Positions 232-51,113 of a stretch of 59,712 nucleotides of DNA are shown one piece after another; within the stretch, counting starts at the first letter, position 1, and every line of letters starts with the position of its first letter. The DNA is from Chloroflexota bacterium. Lineage in GTDB: Bacteria > Chloroflexota > Anaerolineae > Aggregatilineales > Phototrophicaceae. Below the pieces are notes generated by a model. It made no database searches, had not been told where the DNA came from, and saw only the letters and a list, made by a program, of their open reading frames with translations. The position numbers and the translations under genes were made by a program. Location: the NCBI GenBank assembly GCA_039822165.1, contig JBCBMS010000017.1, positions 1 through 59,712 on the forward strand. The letters are read 5' to 3'.

Positions 232-1446
232 CTACCCGGTGCGCTGCATGGCTTTGCTGGCGTTACACAACCGATGCGTCGTCTGGCCGTTGGCGACCAC
301 CGTTTTGCCGCCCTGGCTGTGGGGCACCACATGATCCGCTTCGAAGGCTGCGTACACCACCTCTTCGCCGCAAATCTGGCAGATGCCTTTATCCCGGCGG
401 TAGATGACCATGCGCTGCAGGTTGGTGAAGTGTCGCTGTGCATCGCGGGTGGGCAGGTCTGGCGCATAGAGCAGCCATGCCTGTAACAGCGCGTCGTGCC
501 GGGAGTTAATGCTGCTCCACTGCTGTGGGGTGTTGTTCATGGCCGTCAGGTACTTGCGTGCCAGCGCGTCACCGTCGGCTTCATCCCGGCAGCGCTGTTC
601 GAAGTCCACCACAAAGTTATGGAACGTCATCTCGTAGCCGCTCAACACAAACGTGTCGATCACGGCGGCCACCAGCCAGTAAAGCGACACAAACTGGGCG
701 CGGGTGGAAACCTCTGGCGTGTCATCGCCCAGTGCCGCGTCGAGGAACGCCATTGTGCGTCTGATCTTTTTCGCAACGGCATCGCGCGGGTTGAACGAAT
801 CGTATGTTTCGTACATCTCCACGATGTACTTATCCGTCAGCGTTGCCCCTTCTCCCTGTAGCTCCAGCAGCACGCACTGCGCTGCCGTCTCCTGGTGGTA
901 CTGGCGAATCTGGCGGGCGCGCACGCTGGAGATGACCGGGTAGGACTGCACCAGATGTTCGACGAAGTGGTGAACTGCACCGCCCATCGCGTTGCGCTTT
1001 TCTGCCTGGGTGAGCTGGGTGCCGTTCTGCAATCGCAGGAACATCTCGCGGATCATGGTGTCGGTGGCTTCTTCGACGACGACAATATCCAGCGCGTACA
1101 TGTCGATGTGGTCTTTGACATTTTCCGGTAATTCGTTGTATGGCACCTCGCCGTACTCTGGTGTGTACTCATCGGATAACTTGAACTGGTTGGTTCGGAA
1201 CTCGTAAATGGCACGGACACGCTGCTGCCCATCAATAATTTCATAATCATATTCGGGGTCTGTAGTCAGCATGCGGAAGTATATTTTGGGGATGTCCATA
1301 TTGCGGATGATGGTGTCTATCAGCAGTTGCTTCTGCCGCCTGGTCCAGACGGAATCACGCTGATAGGACGGGGTCGGGTTCAAACGGTTATATCGGCGCT
1401 CCAGAATCATGGTAGCCCAGCTCAGAGTTTCCATCCGTCGCTTCAT
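232..1446 (-). CDS. DUF262 (ParB-like NTP-binding, DGQQR motif) protein with C-terminal HNH endonuclease motif; GmrSD-like type IV restriction candidate
   Basis: 404-aa ORF; N-terminal IIDGQQR motif typical of DUF262/ParB-like domain; C-terminal CQICG...DHVVPHSQGG...NGQTTHRLCN HNH signature. Confidence 0.7.
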   Translation of the reverse strand: MKRRMETLSWATMILERRYNRLNPTPSYQRDSVWTRRQKQLLIDTIIRNMDIPKIYFRMLTTDPEYDYEIIDGQQRVRAIYEFRTNQFKLSDEYTPEYGEVPYNELPENVKDHIDMYALDIVVVEEATDTMIREMFLRLQNGTQLTQAEKRNAMGGAVHHFVEHLVQSYPVISSVRARQIRQYHQETAAQCVLLELQGEGATLTDKYIVEMYETYDSFNPRDAVAKKIRRTMAFLDAALGDDTPEVSTRAQFVSLYWLVAAVIDTFVLSGYEMTFHNFVVDFEQRCRDEADGDALARKYLTAMNNTPQQWSSINSRHDALLQAWLLYAPDLPTRDAQRHFTNLQRMVIYRRDKGICQICGEEVVYAAFEADHVVPHSQGGKTVVANGQTTHRLCNASKAMQRTG

Positions 1447-8388: not shown

Positions 8389-8422
8389 GTAGGGGCTTAA
8401 TTCATTAAGCCCCTACTTTTAT
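8389..8422 (+). terminator. Rho-independent terminator formed by a 28-nt GTAGGGGC...GCCCCTAC palindrome followed by TTTT
   Basis: gtaggggcttaat-tc-attaagcccctac + ttttat; member of the dispersed palindrome family. Confidence 0.7.
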
Positions 8423-8450: not shown

Positions 8451-10310
8451 ATGACTGACCAGACCCTGCCACAGAACACATTTGACGCCCCTTATGACGA
8501 GGAAATGGAACGCGCCATTCTCGGTTCGGTGTTGATTAACCCGTCTGTTTTCCTGTCGATTGCGTCGTTCCTCCAGCCAGACGACTTTTTCATTCTGCGC
8601 CACCGTTACATCTGGGAGGCGTTCGGGCACATTTCGTTGCGTGGCGAACCGATTGAACGGCAGACCGTGCGCCGCCAGCTACAGGACATGGACTTCTATG
8701 AGGCCGTTGGCGGGGACGTGTACCTCTCCGAACTGACGAACAGCACCTCATCTGCCATCTATGCCGAACACTACGCCCAGCTTGTGGAGCGCGACGCCGT
8801 GCGCCGCCGCCTGCTCATCGCCAGCGACGAAATCCGGGGCATTGCCACCGACCGCGATAAGTCGCTGGAAGAAGTAATTGGCGATGCGGAAAGCAAACTG
8901 TTCGCCGTCAGTGAGCGCCGCACCCAGCGCGATGTGGTCTCCATGCGAGAGGCCACCAGCCGTTACTTCGAGCGGATTGAGCAGATGATGCAGAGCCAGC
9001 AGCGCGGGCTGGGCCTGCCGACCGGCTTCAAAAAGCTGGACGCGCTCCTGGGTGGGTTGCAGCGCAGTGACCTGCTCATCTTTGCCGGACGCCCCGGTAT
9101 GGGCAAGACGTCGTTTATGCTCTCGCTGGCACTCAATGCCGCACAGCAGTTCGGCGCACGGATTCTGGTTTTCTCGCTGGAAATGGGCGTGGAGCAGATG
9201 GTGCAGCGTATGGTGAGCATGGAAACGGGCATCAACATGCAGCGTTTGCGCACGGGCCAGTTCGAGCAGCACGAGCAGCGGTTACTGGTGGAAGCATTAG
9301 GCCGTCTGAGTACGCAGCGCATCTTCCTGGACGATTCGCCATCGCTGAACCCGATCCAGATGCGAACCAAATGCCAGCGCATCAAGCACGAGCATGGCCT
9401 GGACCTGGTGGTGCTGGACTACATGCAGTTGATGCACGCGCCGGGGTTCACCAACAACCGCGTCCAGGAGATCAGTTACATCAGCCGCCACATGAAAGAA
9501 CTGGCCCGCGAGATGAACGTGCCTCTGCTCAGTGCCGCGCAGCTATCTCGCGCTGTGGAACAGCGTGCAGACAAGCGCCCACAGTTGAGCGACCTGCGCG
9601 AGTCTGGCTGTTTAACCGGGGAGTCGCTGGTGTGGCTGCCAGATGCAGGCCGCTACGAGCGCATGGATGCGCTGTGTGGGCAGTCGGGCTTCCGGGTGAT
9701 GAGCCTGAACCCTGACACTTACAAACTGGAAGCCGCCACTGTAACGAATGCGTTCAGCACCGGGGTAAAGCCCGTGTTCAAGTTGCAAACCGCGCCAGGA
9801 CGCAGTGTGCGTGCCACAGCAAATCACAAATTCCTGACGATAGAGGGCTGGAAGCGTCTGGATGAACTGGTAATCGGGGAACGCATCGCAACCCCGGCGG
9901 ACAGAGCAGGCTCTGTCCCTGCACAGGCGCTCACAATGGCTGTAGGGACGCACAACGGCGCGTCCGCCATGAAAACCACCATACTGCCAACCGACGTGAC
10001 ATGGGCCGCCATTACCGCGATAGAACACGATGGCGAAGAAGCCGTCTACGATCTGACCGTACCCGCACATAGCAACTTCGTGTGCAACAACATCGTCGTT
10101 CACAACTCCATTGAGCAGGACGCCGACATTGTGATGTTCCTGTACCGCGACATTGTGTACAACGAGGCGACCGAATACCCGAACCAGGCCGATGTCATCG
10201 TCGCCAAGCACCGCAACGGCCCCACAGACGTGATCCCACTGTACTTCGACTCCACCATCACGCGCTTTATGGACGGCACGCGGCAGTCCGTGGATTTGAG
10301 CACGATGTAA
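8451..10310 (+). CDS. dnaB: replicative DNA helicase DnaB containing a mini-intein
   Basis: DnaB N-terminal domain, Walker A GRPGMGKTS, Walker B LVVLDYMQL; extein junction RESG|C...VVHN|SIEQDADIV. Confidence 0.95.
   Translation: MTDQTLPQNTFDAPYDEEMERAILGSVLINPSVFLSIASFLQPDDFFILRHRYIWEAFGHISLRGEPIERQTVRRQLQDMDFYEAVGGDVYLSELTNSTSSAIYAEHYAQLVERDAVRRRLLIASDEIRGIATDRDKSLEEVIGDAESKLFAVSERRTQRDVVSMREATSRYFERIEQMMQSQQRGLGLPTGFKKLDALLGGLQRSDLLIFAGRPGMGKTSFMLSLALNAAQQFGARILVFSLEMGVEQMVQRMVSMETGINMQRLRTGQFEQHEQRLLVEALGRLSTQRIFLDDSPSLNPIQMRTKCQRIKHEHGLDLVVLDYMQLMHAPGFTNNRVQEISYISRHMKELAREMNVPLLSAAQLSRAVEQRADKRPQLSDLRESGCLTGESLVWLPDAGRYERMDALCGQSGFRVMSLNPDTYKLEAATVTNAFSTGVKPVFKLQTAPGRSVRATANHKFLTIEGWKRLDELVIGERIATPADRAGSVPAQALTMAVGTHNGASAMKTTILPTDVTWAAITAIEHDGEEAVYDLTVPAHSNFVCNNIVVHNSIEQDADIVMFLYRDIVYNEATEYPNQADVIVAKHRNGPTDVIPLYFDSTITRFMDGTRQSVDLSTM
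9609..10106 (+). other. mini-intein (166 aa, no homing-endonuclease domain) inserted at the RESG/SIEQD site of DnaB
   Basis: Begins Cys (CLTGESLVW), contains TANHKF (block B T..H), ends VVHN followed by Ser; same insertion site as the Synechocystis DnaB mini-intein, recalled from memory and not checked here. Confidence 0.85.
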
Positions 10311-10355: not shown

Positions 10356-10428
10356 GCCCCCGTAGCTCAGTGGATAGAGCGCGGGACTCCTAAGCCCGGC
10401 GTCACAGGTTCGATTCCTGTCGGGGGCA
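10356..10428 (+). tRNA. tRNA-Arg (anticodon CCT)
   Basis: Cloverleaf by eye: acceptor GCCCCCG/CGGGGGC, D-arm GCTC-AGTGGATA-GAGC, anticodon loop CTCCTAA, T-arm ACAGG-TTCGATT-CCTGT; A31-G39 mismatch. Confidence 0.75.
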
Positions 10429-10444
10429 CACGCCACACTTCCAT

Positions 10445-10517
10445 GCATCCGTAGCTCAGTGGATAGAGCGCGGGACGCCTGAACCCGGCGTCACAGGTTC
10501 GATTCCTGTCGGGGGCA
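10445..10517 (+). tRNA. tRNA-Arg-like paralog with non-canonical anticodon loop CGCCTGA (G33, G37) and imperfect acceptor stem; possible pseudo-tRNA
   Basis: Same D/T arms as copy 1; acceptor GCATCCG vs CGGGGGC (1 mismatch + GU). Confidence 0.5.
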
Positions 10518-10530
10518 CACGCCACACTAT

Positions 10531-10603
10531 GCATCCGTAGCTCAGTGGATAGAGCGCGGGACGCCTGAACCCGGCGTCACAGGGTCGATTCCTGTCGGGG
10601 GCA
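10531..10603 (+). tRNA. tRNA-Arg-like paralog (loop CGCCTGA); possible pseudo-tRNA
   Basis: Near-identical to 10445..10517; T-arm ACAGGG-TCGATT-CCTGT. Confidence 0.5.
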
Positions 10604-10615
10604 CACACTTCGCCT

Positions 10616-10689
10616 GCACCCTGTAGCGCAGTGGATAGAGCACGGGACGCCTGAACCCGGCGTCACAGGGTCGATTCCTGTCGAGGGCA
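10616..10689 (+). tRNA. tRNA-Arg-like paralog (loop CGCCTGA), most degenerate copy; possible pseudo-tRNA
   Basis: D-stem GCGC/GAGC and acceptor with mismatches; 3' end CGAGGGCA. Confidence 0.4.
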
Positions 10690-10705
10690 AACGCCACACT
10701 TCCAT

Positions 10706-10778
10706 GCATCCGTAGCTCAGTGGATAGAGCACGGGACGCCTGAACCCGGCGTCACAGGGTCGATTCCTGTTGGGGGCA
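10706..10778 (+). tRNA. tRNA-Arg-like paralog (loop CGCCTGA); possible pseudo-tRNA
   Basis: Same unit as copies 2-3; followed by terminator. Confidence 0.5.
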
Positions 10779-12984: not shown

Positions 12985-14025
12985 ATGGCAACCCGATCCG
13001 TAGACAATCCACCCGGCAACCCGGCGTCGCGCAACAACACGTTCACGGACTTTTTCGCGCGGTACGGCATTTTCCTCGTGCTGTTGCTCATTGTTGCGTT
13101 TCTGGCGATTCTCACGCCCATTGTGCGCGGCGAACAGTATTTCCTGCGTCCGCAAAACCTGATTAACATCACGCTCCAGGCCTCGATTAACGCAATTATC
13201 GCTGTGGGGATGACGTTCATTATCACCAGCGGCGGCATTGACCTGTCCGTGGGTAGCATCGTGGCGCTGTGCGGCGTACTGGCGGCATACACATTGCAGC
13301 TCACACAGGAGTGGGCGTTCAGTGCGTGGCTCGGCCTGGCGGTCGCGCTCGGAGCGGGTGGGTTATGCGGCCTGTTCAACGGCTGGCTGATAACGCGGTT
13401 TAATCTACCCGCATTTATTGCCACACTCGGTACGATGGGCATATTCCGGGGGCTGGCGCTCATCCTCAGCGATGGTCGCTCGATTTACGGTTTCGGCCCC
13501 GCCTTCATTGACCTGTTCGCCGGGAATTTTACCGTGCCGATCATCGGGGACTTTCCGAAAGCCGTTGTCGTTGCGCTGATAGTCGCACTTATTGGCTGGT
13601 TCCTGCTGACGAAAACGAAGTTTGGCAAATACACCATCGCTATTGGTGGCAGCGAGGAAACCTCACGTCTGGCGGGTATCCCGGTAGAGCGCTACCGCCT
13701 CGGTATTTATGCATTCGGCGGACTGCTAACGGGCGTGGCGGGGAGCCTGCTGCTGGCGCGGTTACGCTCCGGTGATCCAACGTTCGGTACGCTGTACGAA
13801 CTGGATGCGATTGCTGCCGCTGTTATCGGCGGAACCAGCCTGAGTGGTGGCGAGGGCAGTGTAACCGGAACGATCATCGGTGCGCTTATTATCAGCGTGG
13901 TGCGCAACGCGCTCAACATCCTGAATTTGCAGAGCTACTACCAGCAGCTTGTCATTGGCGCAGTCATTATCCTCGCCATCATGCTGGATCAGTGGCGCAA
14001 GGGGCAGGCCGCCAAACGTATCTGA
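12985..14025 (+). CDS. sugar ABC transporter permease (RbsC/branched-chain-type, 8-10 TM)
   Basis: 346 aa hydrophobic; GGIDLSVGS and conserved SGGEGSV motif region of monosaccharide ABC permeases. Confidence 0.8.
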   Translation: MATRSVDNPPGNPASRNNTFTDFFARYGIFLVLLLIVAFLAILTPIVRGEQYFLRPQNLINITLQASINAIIAVGMTFIITSGGIDLSVGSIVALCGVLAAYTLQLTQEWAFSAWLGLAVALGAGGLCGLFNGWLITRFNLPAFIATLGTMGIFRGLALILSDGRSIYGFGPAFIDLFAGNFTVPIIGDFPKAVVVALIVALIGWFLLTKTKFGKYTIAIGGSEETSRLAGIPVERYRLGIYAFGGLLTGVAGSLLLARLRSGDPTFGTLYELDAIAAAVIGGTSLSGGEGSVTGTIIGALIISVVRNALNILNLQSYYQQLVIGAVIILAIMLDQWRKGQAAKRI

Positions 14026-14041
14026 CATAATCGGCAACACT

Positions 14042-14066
14042 GTAGGGGCGAGGCCATGCCTCGCCC
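14042..14066. repeat. REP-like palindrome (degenerate copy) after permease gene
   Basis: gtaggggcgaggc-cat-gcctcgccc. Confidence 0.5.
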
Positions 14067-16059: not shown

Positions 16060-16087
16060 GTAGGGGCATGGCATGCCATGCCCCTAC
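16060..16087. repeat. REP-like perfect 28-nt palindrome GTAGGGGCATGGCATGCCATGCCCCTAC
   Basis: Perfect self-complementarity; 25 nt after stop of binding-protein gene. Confidence 0.7.
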
Positions 16088-22991: not shown

Positions 22992-23027
22992 CACTGCAAC
23001 GGCGGGTTGTAACGTGGGTAGGGGCGT

Positions 23028-23055
23028 AGCGCGTTGCGCCCCTACGACAAACGGT
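23028..23055. repeat. REP-like 28-nt palindrome GTAGGGGCG...CGCCCCTAC after nuoK
   Basis: gtaggggcgtagcgcgttgcgcccctac. Confidence 0.6.
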
Positions 23056-28737: not shown

Positions 28738-28758
28738 ACGCCAGATTGCCACAAATTG

Positions 28759-28784
28759 CAGGGACGTAGCATGCTTCGTCCCTG
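28759..28784. repeat. REP-like palindrome (variant of the 32850 element) between convergent nuoN and DHFR-family gene; followed by TTTG
   Basis: cagggacgtagcatgcttcgtccctg. Confidence 0.6.
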
Positions 28785-28796
28785 TTTGCGTCTGGC

Positions 28797-30316: not shown

Positions 30317-30343
30317 GTAGGGGCGAAGACTATGCCTTGCCCC
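30317..30343. repeat. REP-like degenerate palindrome
   Basis: gtaggggcgaag-actatg-ccttgcccc + ttt. Confidence 0.45.
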
Positions 30344-32461: not shown

Positions 32462-33916
32462 CTACGGGCTGCGGATAATTTCCTCTAGCGTACTGTGCGC
32501 GAACTGCTCCACCACCTCAAACGTCGCGTCATCAAACGCGGGATCGAGTGCAATCAGGTCGTTGAGTAACCGTTCGCGCTCTGCGTCGCTGTGATAGTAA
32601 ATCAACACCTGCGCCCGGTCACTTTCCGGCCTGTTTTCCGTGTCGATCCCATGAAAACCTTCGTAGTAGCGCACAGTATAGTTACTCGGATAGCTGTATG
32701 CCAGCGAATCAGAGCCGGTGATGTTCTCTGCAAAGTAAAACGCGGCTATCTCTGCATCTTCGGCAATACCCGTTTCCGGTGACGTGATAATCACGCCGGT
32801 GCGCACAGTATGCGCCGCCACGCCGATAACAAAAACAATCGCAATACCTGTAGGGACGTAGCATGCTACGTCCCTACCCTGACGACTGCAAAAACGCTCC
32901 GTCAAAAACACAATCCCCGCGCCCACCGTCATGAAGTAAATCGGCATCAACGACGACACAATGCGCGGGTATGGGAACACCCGCTGCACCAGCAGTGCCA
33001 GCGTCACCCACACCAGCGCCGTCACCAGCGGAGCCACACTGTACGGCGACCGCGACCGGTGGGTGACCAGTCCAGCGACGGCTGCAAACCCCATCACCGC
33101 CGCCGTGACTGTCGTAAACGGTAGCCACTGATGCGCCCATGCGAAAAAGCCAGCATAGTTCTCGTAGAAGCGCGGGTAATACTCACCGGGTGGAACCGGC
33201 TGCACAAACGGGTTGTTTATCAGCCGATCCAGTCCACTGAACATCATCACCGGCACGTAGAGAATCAGCGTCAGCACGGCGCCCAATCCGATGCCTACGA
33301 CATAGTTCTTTAGCAGCACGCGCCGCCGATACCCCGCGTTATCGAACCAGATGGACAGCAGCAACCACAGTGCCACCGCGCCCATCGGATACAGCATCGT
33401 CGGTATCGTGAGGAAGCCAAGCGCAGACAACAGCGCAAACCACAGCCACTCATTGTTGCGGTTCTTTTCCAGCAAGCGCTGGCCCAGCCAGAACAGCATC
33501 AGCGTAATGAGTACCTGCAAACTGTAGCCCCGTGCATTCACGCTCATATCCAGCAGTGACGGTGACACCGCTACTATCGCCGCCGCCAGCAAGCCTGCCC
33601 CGCGCCCGTAGAATTTTCGTCCCACCTCATACGCGAACGGGATCATCACCACACCGGGAATCCACGCGGCCATGCGCAGGATCACCGGGTGGTTGCCGAA
33701 CACCAGCCACGCCACATGCGCCAGCAAGGAGTGAAAGATGTGGTTGTTTGGCTCAGAGTAGTTGGCCATGATAGACGGCATATTGGTGGAGACGTACTCT
33801 ATGAAGCTCAACGCCTCGTCAAAGCGCATGCTGCGGTCAAAGTAACGGACGCGCAGCCAGTACCCCACCAGCATCATCGCCAGCAGCACCCCATTGTGTA
33901 ACCATCGTCCGCGCAT
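32462..33916 (-). CDS. ArnT/PMT-like (GT39/GT83-type) membrane glycosyltransferase; contains an in-frame palindromic element
   Basis: 484 aa polytopic; N-terminal RMAAWIPGVV..AAIVAVSPSLLDMSVNARGYS pattern of dolichyl/undecaprenyl-phosphate sugar transferases. Confidence 0.7.
   Translation of the reverse strand: MRGRWLHNGVLLAMMLVGYWLRVRYFDRSMRFDEALSFIEYVSTNMPSIMANYSEPNNHIFHSLLAHVAWLVFGNHPVILRMAAWIPGVVMIPFAYEVGRKFYGRGAGLLAAAIVAVSPSLLDMSVNARGYSLQVLITLMLFWLGQRLLEKNRNNEWLWFALLSALGFLTIPTMLYPMGAVALWLLLSIWFDNAGYRRRVLLKNYVVGIGLGAVLTLILYVPVMMFSGLDRLINNPFVQPVPPGEYYPRFYENYAGFFAWAHQWLPFTTVTAAVMGFAAVAGLVTHRSRSPYSVAPLVTALVWVTLALLVQRVFPYPRIVSSLMPIYFMTVGAGIVFLTERFCSRQGRDVACYVPTGIAIVFVIGVAAHTVRTGVIITSPETGIAEDAEIAAFYFAENITGSDSLAYSYPSNYTVRYYEGFHGIDTENRPESDRAQVLIYYHSDAERERLLNDLIALDPAFDDATFEVVEQFAHSTLEEIIRSP
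32850..32877. repeat. perfect 28-nt REP-like palindrome GTAGGGACGTAGCATGCTACGTCCCTAC located in-frame inside the glycosyltransferase CDS (encodes GRDVACYVPT)
   Basis: Perfect self-complementarity; near-identical copy in intergenic position at 28759. Confidence 0.75.
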
Positions 33917-40959: not shown

Positions 40960-42147
40960 ATGTCATCCACGCGGCATAATGCCACAAAAAACAGGCACCC
41001 GCCCATGTTCCACATCCCCTACCTGGATACCAACCCCATCGCACAGGCCGAGTACCGACGGCTGCGCCACACCAATACCCTCTCGCGGGGGCATACGGTG
41101 GTGTTTGCGCTGGTTTACCTGCTGATTGTGCTGGTGGCGTTCTCGCCGTATGTCTACTACATCACGCCGCGGCGCGTTAGCTGGCTGGCGGTGATAGCCA
41201 TTGTCGTGTTCGGGTTTCAGGTCTACGTCACGCTGCGCACGGCAGCCGTGATTACGTCCGTGCCACTGCCACAGACCGAGTTACTGACCATCACGCCGAT
41301 GAGCCGCTGGCGGCTGGTGGTGGGCAAATGGTGGGGCGCGTTCAGAACGGTGTGGGTGTGGCACCTGCTCACGGCAATTCCGAAGGTGGGGTTATCACTG
41401 GGCGTGATGAACTATATGCATTTACAGACAGTGTATACAATGCCAGTGTTCACCAACGGAACTTTGCGACTGCTAGCTTTCCCATACATCTACATCAGCC
41501 ATAACTACCATGCTCGACAGATTTATCCAATGGGATGGATAGTTGTAATTGTAATCTTATTCAGTCTGCATTTTGCGATCTGGGATTCTACAATGTTTGC
41601 GGCTATGGCAACTCTCGTGAGTTCTGCTTACTCCAATACACTATTGACACGCTTGCTTATTTTCCGGGGAGTGTTGTTCGCATTTGTGATCTTATCCAAC
41701 CTGACCATCGGATACATCGACCACAATTATATTCGACAGTACAACATAATTCCCTCGTATCACATTCTCAAACAGAATGAATTTATTGAAGAATGCGTGG
41801 AAATCTTCTACAAAGAATACAGAGATGATTGCGCTAGCTGGTATGTCCATAAACAATACACACGCGCTATGGAGACACACCTCATAGCATCCAACTCATT
41901 TATCGACAACGGCATCATGCTACACGCGAATATGATGCGCCCTATCCCATACAGCAAAGTTTCCAGCAGCCAGTGTTTCTGGCTGGAATTGTGTGAGGGA
42001 ACATATGATCCATGGTGGTATGAAACTCTACGAATAAGTCACCTGCAATTTCTGCTGCGGCACATGGCAAGCGCCGCCTACGGGATGTTTCTACACGTGA
42101 TGCTCACGCTGGGGTTTCTGTGGCTGGCGGCGCGGCGGCATCCATAG
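40960..42147 (+). CDS. hypothetical polytopic membrane protein (AT-rich 3' half)
   Basis: 395-aa ORF, multiple TM segments; alternative start 41005. Confidence 0.5.
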   Translation: MSSTRHNATKNRHPPMFHIPYLDTNPIAQAEYRRLRHTNTLSRGHTVVFALVYLLIVLVAFSPYVYYITPRRVSWLAVIAIVVFGFQVYVTLRTAAVITSVPLPQTELLTITPMSRWRLVVGKWWGAFRTVWVWHLLTAIPKVGLSLGVMNYMHLQTVYTMPVFTNGTLRLLAFPYIYISHNYHARQIYPMGWIVVIVILFSLHFAIWDSTMFAAMATLVSSAYSNTLLTRLLIFRGVLFAFVILSNLTIGYIDHNYIRQYNIIPSYHILKQNEFIEECVEIFYKEYRDDCASWYVHKQYTRAMETHLIASNSFIDNGIMLHANMMRPIPYSKVSSSQCFWLELCEGTYDPWWYETLRISHLQFLLRHMASAAYGMFLHVMLTLGFLWLAARRHP

Positions 42148-42169: not shown

Positions 42170-42196
42170 GGCGGACATGCAGAAGCATGTCCCTAC
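42170..42196. repeat. REP unit (GGCGGAC arm ... GTCCCTAC), minus orientation, part of an inverted REP doublet
   Basis: ggcggacatgc-agaa-gcatgtccctac. Confidence 0.6.
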
Positions 42197-42222
42197 AGGT
42201 GTATGGGGTTCACAACAAATGT

Positions 42223-42248
42223 GTAGGGACGGCCTTCTGGCCGTCCGC
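42223..42248. repeat. REP unit (GTAGGGAC ... GTCCGC), plus orientation, partner of 42170..42196 (REPIN-like pair between convergent genes)
   Basis: gtagggacggcc-ttct-ggccgtccgc. Confidence 0.6.
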
Positions 42249-42263
42249 AATAAAAGCCCTGCA

Positions 42264-42911
42264 CTAAATACTGCGTCCGGTTTCTGCTGTGCCGGTAGCG
42301 GTGGCCGCCGGGGTGACGGTGGGCAGTGGCGTGACGGTATCTGTGGGCGGTGTGGTCGCGTCCGGGTCAATTGTCGGCGTCGGTAGCGGGGTGCTGGTTA
42401 CTGTCGGCGTGATCGGCGTCACGGTGGGCAGCGGCGTGGGCGAGATCGTCGGTGACGGAGTGGGAGCCAGCGGCTCAATCGTGTCGTTGCGCATGTAGGC
42501 TTCGTCAATGCGGCGCGTGTCCGTGTTCAGGTCGATGAGGTACCAGTCGGTGTCGCCCACGCGCTCAATCACGCACATAATGCGCCCACCCACCGCAGAG
42601 TCAATCACGGCGGCCTCTACAGACGGTGAGCGGCGCACATTGGCTGTGGGCACACTCACAATCCAGTCCTCGCACGCCGGGATGGGTGTAAATGTGGGGA
42701 ACAATGTGCGGGTGGGGTCGGCTTCCGTGGCGCGGCGCACAGAGGCCGTGGTAGCGACCACTGCCGCCTGCTCTGTTGCTGCATCCACGCCCAGGCCGCC
42801 TGTCGCCAGGTAGGTTTGCAGGCCCAGCCACAGGTAGTAGCTGCCCAGCACGAACGCCACACTCAGCAAAAAGATTAACCACGCCGGGATACCCCGCCTG
42901 CGCCTGTACAC
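42264..42911 (-). CDS. membrane-anchored protein with Pro/Thr-rich C-terminal low-complexity tail
   Basis: N-terminal TM; C-terminal PTPSPTISPTPLPTVTPITPTVTSTPLPTPT. Confidence 0.55.
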   Translation of the reverse strand: MYRRRRGIPAWLIFLLSVAFVLGSYYLWLGLQTYLATGGLGVDAATEQAAVVATTASVRRATEADPTRTLFPTFTPIPACEDWIVSVPTANVRRSPSVEAAVIDSAVGGRIMCVIERVGDTDWYLIDLNTDTRRIDEAYMRNDTIEPLAPTPSPTISPTPLPTVTPITPTVTSTPLPTPTIDPDATTPPTDTVTPLPTVTPAATATGTAETGRSI

Positions 42912-48971: not shown

Positions 48972-49757
48972 GTGGATTCTAACACGAAAGCTCAGATGAA
49001 AGAGGCCCGCGACCGGATTCGCGGCGGGCACTACGATGAAGCCCGCGCCATTCTGCTGTACATTCGGCACCCGACTGCCCGTGAGTGGCTGGAAAAGCTG
49101 GAACAACTCGACCCATCCGGCAGCGCAGATTCCCTGGCACAGCGACCGACGAAACGCGACAGCGGCCTCAGCCCGGTGGCGATTGGTGTGCTGGCCGTGG
49201 GCGTGGTCGTGTTCGTCGCGGCTATTGTGCTGATGGTGACGGGAACACTCTCGAATTTGTCCGGGTTTTCATTCAATTCCGAGCCGGCCCCGGCGACTAT
49301 GCTGCGTTTCGATCACCCGCAGGTGGCCTTCAGCTACCCGGACACGTTGCAGTTACAGGACGCTTCGCAGCACCCGGATTGTGACCTGCCGCTGGAGTGC
49401 GCGGCCTGGCTGACGGATAGCCGCCGGGATGCGCATGTGCTGGTGAGTTCAATCACCATTCCGCTCCAGATTATCGACTACAGCAGCGACGAACTGGAGC
49501 GGGCGTTGATGCGCTTTGTGCGTGATGGCGTGGCGGGTGAGGAGTTTATCTCGCGCGGGCTGGTGGATGTGGGTGAGGGCCGCTACGAGGCCATCCGGCG
49601 GGAGATGTACTACCCCACCGGCGGCTATGAAGTCACCTACCTGATTACGTTTGAGGGGCGGGCCTACTTCGTGTGGTACCTCGCCAGCTCTGAGCGCGAT
49701 CTTAACCGCTATATGGCCGACGCCGAGATGGTCGCCAATACGCTGCTCATCAAGTAG
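48972..49757 (+). CDS. hypothetical membrane-anchored protein
   Basis: 261-aa ORF with one central TM segment. Confidence 0.5.
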   Translation: MDSNTKAQMKEARDRIRGGHYDEARAILLYIRHPTAREWLEKLEQLDPSGSADSLAQRPTKRDSGLSPVAIGVLAVGVVVFVAAIVLMVTGTLSNLSGFSFNSEPAPATMLRFDHPQVAFSYPDTLQLQDASQHPDCDLPLECAAWLTDSRRDAHVLVSSITIPLQIIDYSSDELERALMRFVRDGVAGEEFISRGLVDVGEGRYEAIRREMYYPTGGYEVTYLITFEGRAYFVWYLASSERDLNRYMADAEMVANTLLIK

Positions 49758-49789
49758 GGTGGGGCGGACGCCAGAATTGGCGTCCCTAC
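49754..49789. repeat. REP unit (ends ...GTCCCTAC), minus orientation
   Basis: gtagggtggggcggacgcc-agaatt-ggcgtccctac. Confidence 0.6.
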
Positions 49790-49809
49790 GCAAAATACAG
49801 GTTCATGCT

Positions 49810-49836
49810 GTAGGGACATGCTTCTGCATGTCCGCC
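49810..49836. repeat. REP unit (GTAGGGAC...GTCCGCC), plus orientation; with 49754..49789 forms an inverted doublet between convergent genes
   Basis: gtagggacatgc-ttct-gcatgtccgcc. Confidence 0.6.
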
Positions 49837-49859
49837 GCAAAAAAACGGGAGAGGATAAC

Positions 49860-51113
<1,254 letters not shown>

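Follow-up and report, generated by a model that had tools for sequence, protein, structure and literature searches.

REP-associated tyrosine transposases (RAYTs) bind folded single-stranded REPs, require the GTAG tag and cut at a CT dinucleotide on either the 5' or the 3' side of the REP (PMC8266576); support in the literature for the mobilisation of REPs by these enzymes in vivo is still indirect (PMC8266576 and passages of PMC5581495). The enzymes of subclass 2.4, equivalent to RAYT Group 4 of Bertels et al. 2017, are characterized, in the available passages of Quentin et al. 2018 (PMC6006769), by the motifs NH[IFV]H, WQ and Y[IV]xNNP and by a variable, REP-bearing insertion between the HUH and Tyr motifs. 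Group 4 RAYTs are described in passages of PMC5581495 as common in Cyanobacteria, Chlorobia and Caldilineae; they were analysed in Haemophilus and are linked to 16-mers of modest abundance. According to the same passages of both papers, the surveys behind subclass 2.4 and Group 4 covered complete genomes up to ~2013-2017. REPs of Group 3 resemble the units examined here in being short, perfect palindromes (PMC8266576).

The repeats analysed in this work share several traits with the REPs of subclass 2.4/Group 4. In both, a G/C-rich stem has GTAG immediately at its foot (passages of PMC6006769 and PMC5581495); as in the subclass 2.4 passages of PMC6006769, double-foot variants combine a GTAG end with a CTAC end, and RAYT genes carry in-frame REPs between their HUH and Tyr motifs. 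The distribution is patchy across phyla, with a Chloroflexi class and the Pasteurellaceae included, as in the Group 4 survey passages. Further likenesses concern the GTAG REPs of Di Nocera 2013, compared through the text description in the available part of that paper rather than through the consensus sequences of its 24 families (PMC3733652): units of 20-40 nt; HH and TT dimers 20-100 nt apart, both homodimers and heterodimers; sub-families that differ by complementary stem changes; tandem-reiterated clusters; a position at most 20 bp from the 3' ends of convergent ORFs; and in-frame intragenic copies, notably in replication and repair genes. In contrast, GTAG-23 of Thermomicrobium roseum (Chloroflexi) is clustered at few loci according to the same text (PMC3733652), whereas the units here are dispersed along the window.

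Archetypal REPINs belong with Group 2/3 RAYTs and consist of near-identical copies round a master sequence, with abundant 16-mers. Those of Pseudomonas fluorescens SBW25 and E. coli were reportedly described by Bertels and Rainey in 2011; they have in common with the doublets presented here the inverted REPs with a short spacer, the recurrence of the doublet (here in relatives) and the association with RAYTs. The differences are that here GTAG lies inside, the partners are unlike, the long hairpin is imperfect, the enzyme would be of Group 4 and no master sequence dominates; owing to the variable upper stem, the family yields few exact 16-mers. HH dimers, in which GTAG is outside, are given as the source of the archetypal Pseudomonas REPINs (available part of PMC3733652). 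E. coli BIMEs also alternate in orientation, join unlike partners (Y and Z) and form tandem arrays, as found here at three loci (L073, L089 and L090), whereas their sequence is unrelated, their REPs exceed the present ones in length and have a bulged stem, and their RAYTs are of Group 2. Rickettsia palindromic elements (RPEs) are likewise palindromic and lie in frame in coding genes without destroying them; in contrast to the repeats here, whose intragenic copies are a minority, they are longer (at least 100 nt for RPE-1) and mostly intragenic.

The DNA analysed here (the window) is a stretch of 59,712 nt from a Chloroflexota bacterium, and two of its sites had been described as REP doublets in a sequence-only reading. 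That core is right, and the kind of repeat is already well described and tied to a domesticated transposase, the RAYT. With a probability of roughly 0.8, both sites are inverted pairs of GTAG-tagged REPs from a REP population served by subclass 2.4/Group 4 RAYTs. The direct importance of the finding is small, since the repeat population of this uncultured Chloroflexota lineage is a typical REP/RAYT one.

Anatomy and setting of the two doublets

Direct reading of the sequence bears out two inverted REP units at each of the reported sites, arranged as follows:

42170..42196, minus strand: left REP unit of doublet 1; the plus strand reads GGCGGAC-ATGC-AGAA-GCAT-GTCCCTAC and the minus strand, tag first, GTAGGGAC-ATGC-TTCT-GCAT-GTCCGCC
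42197..42222: spacer of doublet 1, 26 nt, includes GGTTCACAAC
42223..42248, plus strand: right REP unit of doublet 1, GTAGGGAC-GGCC-TTCT-GGCC-GTCCGC
49763..49789, minus strand: left REP unit of doublet 2; the plus strand reads GGCGGAC-GCCA-GAAT-TGGC-GTCCCTAC
49790..49809: spacer of doublet 2, 20 nt, includes GGTTCA
49810..49836, plus strand: right REP unit of doublet 2, GTAGGGAC-ATGC-TTCT-GCAT-GTCCGCC

Read tag first, a unit is composed of GTAG + GGAC + N4 + a 4-nt loop + N4' + GTCC + GC(C), that is, ~27 nt forming an 8-bp stem and a 4-nt loop with GTAG at the foot. The short hairpin that had been assigned to each unit is present; its length of 4 bp had been underestimated, as the invariant GGAC/GTCC adds another 4 bp. 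The palindrome of 20-50 nt preceded by GTAG that defines the GTAG REPs is thus seen in the unit anatomy, and also in the covariation reported below. One unit type recurs, on the right in doublet 2 and on the left in doublet 1. Doublet 2 had been given the span 49754..49836; the doublet is there, but the position 49754 takes in an unrelated GTAGGG that overlaps the upstream stop codon.

Both doublets lie between convergent genes, as had been claimed, and the distances to the two stop codons, at most 25 nt at either site, bear this out. In particular, doublet 1 begins 22 nt past a hypothetical gene that ends, with its stop codon, at 42147; on its other side, 15 nt separate it from the stop codon of a minus-strand gene (42264-42911) that matches SH3_3 weakly, below threshold. 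For doublet 2 the corresponding distances are 5 nt from the stop codon of a 261-aa hypothetical gene (49755-49757) and ~23 nt from that of an isocitrate/isopropylmalate dehydrogenase (IDH) gene.

The units exceed chance expectation in the 59.7-kb window: GCGGAC-N12-GTCCCTAC with up to two mismatches has 8 matches against 0.48 expected, a count reached in 0/100 shuffles, while GTCCCTAC has 7 matches and GGAC-N12-GTCC 8, each against 1.0 expected. An Rfam scan of the window gave no match at the units, and the gathering scores were reached by four tRNAs only. Folded as single-stranded DNA, doublet 1 has an energy of -22.1 kcal/mol (z -5.0) and doublet 2 of -25.4 kcal/mol (z -5.3), with 0/200 shuffles as good in either case. 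The fold of doublet 1 consists of two separate hairpins, because the upper stems of its two units are unlike; in doublet 2 the outer and central stems are closed with two small hairpins within. The folding suggested in the sequence-only reading returned strongly stable structures at both sites (z ~-5), but one long hairpin is approached only by doublet 2, and imperfectly.

The same reading had expected bidirectional termination between the convergent genes, and this is not supported: no T-run follows the units on either strand (their tails read CTACAGG..., GCAATAA..., CTACGCA... and GCCGCAAAAAAA), and a terminator scan placed no terminator-like site at any unit. A separate terminator-like hairpin, outside the repeat family, lies between doublet 2 and the IDH gene:

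49853..49872: GGATAAC-N6-GTTATCC, overlapping the IDH stop codon; T-rich tail on the plus strand and TTTTTTT 7 nt downstream on the minus strand

In E. coli, REPs are involved in mRNA stabilisation and transcription attenuation, as cited in PMC5581495. Together with the closeness of both doublets to two convergent stop codons, their strong hairpins and a roughly two-fold enrichment of doublets in convergent gaps of other genomes, this would suit a non-mobile origin, in which selection in the host formed each doublet on the spot as a bidirectional terminator or a stabiliser of mRNA 3' ends. Such an origin is very unlikely: besides the missing T-runs and the negative terminator scan, like units lie in frame in dnaB, GT39 and RAYT genes as well as upstream of genes, an identical 12-nt foot occurs across phyla, a separate terminator-like hairpin is already present at 49853-49872, and the IDH genes of relatives end in ordinary hairpin-plus-T-run terminators without a REP. 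As for an effect of the REP pairs on their neighbour genes, protection of mRNA 3' ends by the hairpin would be more likely than classical termination.

Further REP-like elements in the window

The 59.7 kb contain ~13 REP-like elements, namely 8 GGAC-class units and 5 GGGC-class units; a third doublet, two double-foot units and the five units of the sister class, whose foot is GTAGGGGC...GCCCCTAC, had been overlooked:

8389..8416: sister class, double-foot REP, GTAGGGGC-TTAATTCATTAA-GCCCCTAC, intergenic, upstream of dnaB
9896..9968: doublet 3, units 9896-9922 (tag decayed to GCAG) and 9942-9968, 19-nt spacer
14042..14066, plus strand: sister class, single-foot REP, GTAGGGGCGAGGC-CAT-GCCTCGCCC, shortly past a stop codon at 14025
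16060..16087: sister class, double-foot REP, GTAGGGGC-ATGGCATGCCAT-GCCCCTAC, intergenic
23018..23045: sister class, double-foot REP, GTAGGGGC-GTAGCGCGTTGC-GCCCCTAC, intergenic
28758..28785: degenerate double-foot unit, GCAGGGACGTAGCATGCTTCGTCCCTGT
30317..30343, plus strand: sister class, degenerate unit, GTAGGGGCGAAGACTATGCCTTGCCCC, intergenic
32850..32877: double-foot single REP, a perfect 28-nt palindrome GTAGGGAC-GTAG-CATG-CTAC-GTCCCTAC, the centre also written GTAGCATGCTAC

The double-foot form, with GTAG at the 5' end and CTAC at the 3' end, is found at 32850-32877, 8389-8416, 16060-16087 and 23018-23045. Two of the elements are coding. Doublet 3, whose fold is no better than that of shuffles (z -1.5), lies in frame in the mini-intein linker of dnaB (8451-10310; product with Pfam matches to DnaB, DnaB_C and Intein_splicing) and encodes ADRAGSVPAQALTMAVGTHNGASA. 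This linker is hypervariable among DnaB homologues, and the closest of them (78% identity) has REP-encoded peptides of its own; the linker is therefore a hotspot and not the site of a clean insertion event. The unit 32850-32877 is in frame in a GT39/PMT_2 gene, where it encodes GRDVACYVPTG. The degenerate unit 28758-28785 is located between a gene of the Proton_antipo_M family (NADH:quinone oxidoreductase/Mrp antiporter) and a RibD_C gene, which are convergent.

Relatives: conserved structure and RAYT genes

One genome per GTDB species was scanned with the exact pattern GGAC-N12-GTCCCTAC-N{12,40}-GTAGGGAC-N12-GTCC, which specifies 24 bases. The doublet architecture occurs in at least 119 genome stretches; about 100 of those listed are Chloroflexota, mostly Anaerolineae, and include Aggregatilineales, Phototrophicaceae and Flexifilum, while the non-Chloroflexota matches listed are long contigs of Ignavibacteria, Verrucomicrobia, Bacteroidetes and Pleurocapsa and a Glaesserella isolate.

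The loci listed contain 421 strict units with 191 different inner 12-mers. Perfect pairing of the upper stem is found in 136 of these 191 12-mers, whereas 6.4 would be expected from shuffled partners; the arms are of 45 different kinds. In a formal covariation count over 140 distinct units, 96.8% of cells are paired whereas slid partners pair in 28-43%; cells changed on both sides number 265 versus 88 in shuffles, and the observed values were reached in 0/500 shuffles. Since the upper stems pair far above shuffled or slid partners, the hairpin is conserved as a structure, and conservation of sequence is confined to the tag and the lower stem. The two units of a doublet generally carry unlike upper-stem arms (104 of the 115 distinct doublets in the loci listed), which makes them heterodimers.

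Doublets lie mostly outside coding sequence: 16% of those in the loci listed fall inside crude ORF calls in comparison to 82% of random segments, and 29% of the intergenic ones lie in convergent gaps versus ~13% of random intergenic segments, the two-fold enrichment mentioned above. The mostly extragenic position near 3' ends that is typical of GTAG REPs is thus seen both in the stop-codon distances of the window and in the ORF census of the loci. Among viral contigs, a scan found the doublet in 1 of 2.9 million, and 418 kb from IDH-bearing relatives (metagenome scan, protein identity of at most 86%) contained zero units; the REP family is therefore chromosomal and patchy between lineages. An Anaerolineae/Aggregatilineales population of this kind, in which the GTAGGGAC...GTCC foot is invariant, the upper stem is hypervariable and TT heterodimers predominate, is absent from the Group 4 survey passages of PMC6006769 and PMC5581495.

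In this genome, ~68 kb were examined, made up of the window and 8.4 kb beyond its right side, and contain no RAYT; the 8.4 kb also have no REP unit, and on the left the sole contig found ends at about window position 48. RAYT-like genes are present in five of the doublet loci (L005, L017, L023, L040 and L065), with doublets beside or inside the genes. The lead came from tblastn with an E. coli YafM sequence, used as a lead only, and the hits were confirmed independently by NCBIfam, Pfam, PDB and alignment. All five match NCBIfam NF047646 'REP-associated tyrosine transposase' with E-values of 8e-19 to 6e-16 (59-68 bits, below the 80-bit cut-off) and give a weak Pfam Y1_Tnp match; a profile built from them matches E. 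coli TnpA-REP (4ER8) with an E-value of 1.7e-5, whereas the single-sequence PDB search gave no match. In their alignment NHxH, WQ and Y..NP are invariant. Four of the five genes contain an in-frame REP doublet just past the HUH strand; at this position the fifth carries one unit, its doublet lying upstream. Across 120 homologues, the loop that separates the HUH motif from the Tyr motif measures 3 to 105 aa, and most long loops carry REP-encoded peptides such as VGT..S, ..VVPT, SSLQ and GRD..RPY.

The RAYTs of the related loci fit subclass 2.4/Group 4 in their motifs (NHVH, WQ and YVxNNP), in going with double-foot REPs and in bearing REPs within the gene; the motif and insertion features of subclass 2.4 are those of related-locus enzymes, not of one from this genome. 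REPs in frame in RAYT genes were considered as a novelty and rejected as such, being already described for subclass 2.4 in passages of PMC6006769. The repeat family, the covariation of its hairpin, the doublet architecture, the extragenic bias and the linkage to RAYTs in related genomes are established. REP units also explain odd peptides such as VGTxxxxS, xxVVPT and SSLQ in annotated proteins, among them DnaB inteins, glycosyltransferases and RAYTs.

A RAYT is presumably present in this genome too and would be the enzyme that mobilises these doublets. Each unit forms its hairpin in single-stranded DNA, with an invariant GGAC/GTCC lower stem and four upper base pairs that vary while staying paired. 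By analogy with other RAYTs, HUH/Tyr single-strand DNA enzymes which recognise a folded REP with its GTAG and cut a nearby CT, a Group 4 RAYT of the genome would recognise GTAG and the GGAC/GTCC foot and copy or move units and doublets round the chromosome. Copies would survive where they do little harm, mostly past stop codons and occasionally in frame in tolerant protein loops.

An invariant foot with a variable upper stem leads to undercounting by methods based on exact k-mers, and this may bear on the weak REP association of Group 4 RAYTs in earlier surveys; the modest abundance of Group 4 16-mers is what a variable upper stem would produce. A broader reading, possible but doubtful, is that GTAGGGAC-foot REPs constitute one cross-phylum super-family served by Group 4 RAYTs that read only the tag and the lower stem, leaving the upper stem free (at least 45 arm types) and the partners nearly always unlike. 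The k-mer surveys would then have scored Group 4 weakly because exact 16-mers are rare, the density in Anaerolineae would equal that of classical REPIN systems (~1 unit/5 kb here), and the activity of the family would suffice for repeated insertion into its own transposase gene and into the intein linkers of essential genes.

Possible mobility of the doublet

The sequence-only reading had also identified the doublet with the mobile unit of REPINs, a claim that stands in part. Inverted REP pairs with a short spacer are present three times in the window (spacers of 26, 20 and 19 nt) and recur as units in relatives; on the other side, the three window doublets are unlike one another, carry their GTAG tags inside, as TT dimers, and join unlike partners. 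They are not copies of one another and have in common only the invariant foot and one unit type, GGACATGCAGAAGCATGTCC; this unit occurs in both doublet 1 and doublet 2, but its side with respect to the spacer motif is reversed between them. Such non-identical doublets do not fit a recently active master doublet.

Three MAGs (DAOTTW, CAZXCU and CALKIA) contain a doublet that is repeated at several sites along with its spacer and 40-70 nt of adjoining sequence, and that forms the core of a ~170-190 nt composite repeat. Repetition of a doublet as a unit is thus seen in the MAGs of relatives and in none of the three doublets in ~68 kb of this genome; the refuting condition of the sequence-only reading, doublets not conserved as a unit elsewhere in the genome, does not hold for relatives. 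In Aggregatilineales SYSU G02658 (CP146238.1), intergenic tandem arrays consist of 11-12 copies of whole doublets with periods of 103, 78 and 80 nt. CRISPR was rejected as an identity for these arrays, because the segments between the doublets are identical, which indicates tandem duplications. The spacers hold shared elements as well: the motif GGTTCACAACGG is common to several genomes, window doublet 1 included, and GGTTCACAAC of the doublet 1 spacer is also present in the doublet spacers of other Anaerolineae genomes.

These observations weigh against an origin in which doublets are assembled in place, through insertion of single units, preferentially beside a unit already there in inverse orientation, or exchange of units by recombination or gene conversion, the doublet itself not being the mobile unit. 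Entire doublets repeated with spacer and flank, their tandem amplification and a spacer motif found in multiple genomes speak against such a process, and strict TT doublets outnumber single units in the loci (124 vs 54), a count biased by the choice of loci for having a doublet. Assembly in place would in turn account for the predominance of heterodimers, for GGACATGCAGAAGCATGTCC lying on opposite sides of a common spacer motif, for the window spacers differing in length and mostly in sequence, and for the occurrence of single and double-foot units. It would also suit the unit pair of doublet 3 (AGAGCAGGCTCT with GCRCAACGGCGC), found again at a non-homologous intergenic site (L081) with a spacer unrelated to that of doublet 3. 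On balance this origin is rather unlikely.

The composite repeat, which in some genomes has terminal inverted repeats of its own, and the inverted outer 7 nt of the doublets recall a MITE-type element in which GGCGGAC/GTCCGCC would be the terminal inverted repeats. This is extremely improbable. The target-site duplication that accompanies terminal inverted repeats in MITEs is missing, as no direct repeat occurs among the flank pairs of the three window doublets (ggttca/aataaa, ggtggg/gcaaaa and aacccc/atgaaa); the elements are only 73-79 nt long, their conserved parts are the GTAG tag and the hairpin foot rather than terminal repeats, and the sole transposase-like gene linked to doublets is a Y1 HUH enzyme. 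GTAG-tagged REP pairs remain the preferred identity of the sites.

The presence or absence polymorphism that had been proposed as a mark of mobile doublets was not recovered: exact-protein look-ups for sister MAGs and the metagenome IDH scan returned no empty site. The sister MAGs GCA_039820705.1, GCA_038523065.1 and GCA_038520535.1 (99.5-99.99% identity) have identical doublets, and none of 80 IDH loci at ≤86% identity in the metagenome scan keeps synteny downstream of IDH.

The repeats also leave their mark on assemblies. Logan assemblies of this organism break inside doublet 1, a sign of a multi-copy sequence, and 27 of 114 doublets lie at contig edges in comparison to 2% of random segments. 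REP units explain the fragmented MAGs of this organism, whose contigs break at the units.

REP units within coding sequences

REP units, the GTAG-tagged palindromes, are found in frame within two genes of the window, in one as a doublet (two inverted units and a spacer) and in the other as a double-foot REP, a single unit with GTAG at one end and CTAC at the other.

Features of the two genes
8451-10310: dnaB, replicative helicase with a mini-intein
9896-9968: complete REP doublet within the mini-intein linker, in frame, encoding ADRAGSVPAQALTMAVGTHNGASA
32462-33916, minus strand: gene for a GT39/PMT_2 membrane glycosyltransferase
32850-32877: perfect 28-nt double-foot REP, in frame in the glycosyltransferase gene

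Comparison of DnaB homologues indicates that the intein linker is hypervariable: it is minimal in some of them (P0089 and P0095), and the nearest homologue (78% identity) carries its own REP-encoded peptides in the linker, in another reading frame. The linker seems to act as a hotspot, or a safe harbour, for REPs. Directly downstream of dnaB comes a four-gene tRNA cluster (10356-10778).

In the glycosyltransferase the double-foot REP encodes GRDVACYVPTG. The alignment is variable in this region, and P0242, which is the closest homologue (57% identity), is 9 residues shorter here.

In the family of REP-associated tyrosine transposases (RAYTs) linked to these doublets, the genes themselves harbour REP units or doublets, inserted in frame after the HUH motif and ahead of the Tyr motif, as observed at the doublet-bearing loci L005, L017, L023, L040, and L065 and in the homologous proteins P0121-P0240. 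The reading frames of these REPs differ among genes, and the loop between the two motifs ranges from 3 to 105 aa in 120 homologues. In-gene REPs at this position are already known for RAYT subclass 2.4, according to the account of that subclass in PMC6006769.

Other REP arrangements

A second REP class in the window has the foot GTAGGGGC...GCCCCTAC; most of its members are double-foot single units, and no doublets of this class occur within the window.

Second-class REPs, all intergenic
8389-8416
14042-14066
16060-16087
23018-23045
30317-30343

In CP146238.1 (Aggregatilineales SYSU G02658), whole doublets with a linker form tandem arrays resembling BIME-type clusters.

Tandem doublet arrays of CP146238.1
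L073, 3627-4785: period 103 nt, 11.3 copies, 98% identity; no long ORF spans this array
L089, 3055-3990, and L090, 2473-3260: periods 78 and 80 nt

In three MAGs the doublet is the core of a composite repeat of about 170-190 nt, present at several sites, which includes additional hairpins and has terminal inverted repeats of its own, such as ATGGACAA...TTGTCCAT and CTAAGCCA...TGGCTTAG.

Composite-repeat loci
DAOTTW: L024, L026, L043, L051, L034, L037, L091
CAZXCU: L062, L082, L087
CALKIA: L020, L063, L110

Terminator candidate and contig ends

The sequence-only reading had assigned bidirectional termination between convergent genes to the REPs; a more conventional terminator candidate is a hairpin at the isocitrate/isopropylmalate dehydrogenase gene.

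49853-49872: hairpin GGATAAC-N6-GTTATCC, overlapping the dehydrogenase stop codon

It is followed by a T-rich tail on the plus strand and, on the minus strand, by a TTTTTTT run 7 nt downstream.

Three independent Logan assemblies of the same organism (L204, L206, and L207) end within doublet 1 (42170-42248), right after a unit. Of the 114 doublets in the other loci, 27 are at a contig edge, against 2% of random segments. These ends are repeat-induced assembly breaks, which may cause the strong fragmentation of this organism's MAGs.

At the left end of the window, the sole Logan contig found stops at about position 48, and a CCCTAC fragment is located at 112-117, near a gene whose product resembles a type IV restriction enzyme.

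232-1446, minus strand: 404-aa protein with GmrSD_N and HNH domains
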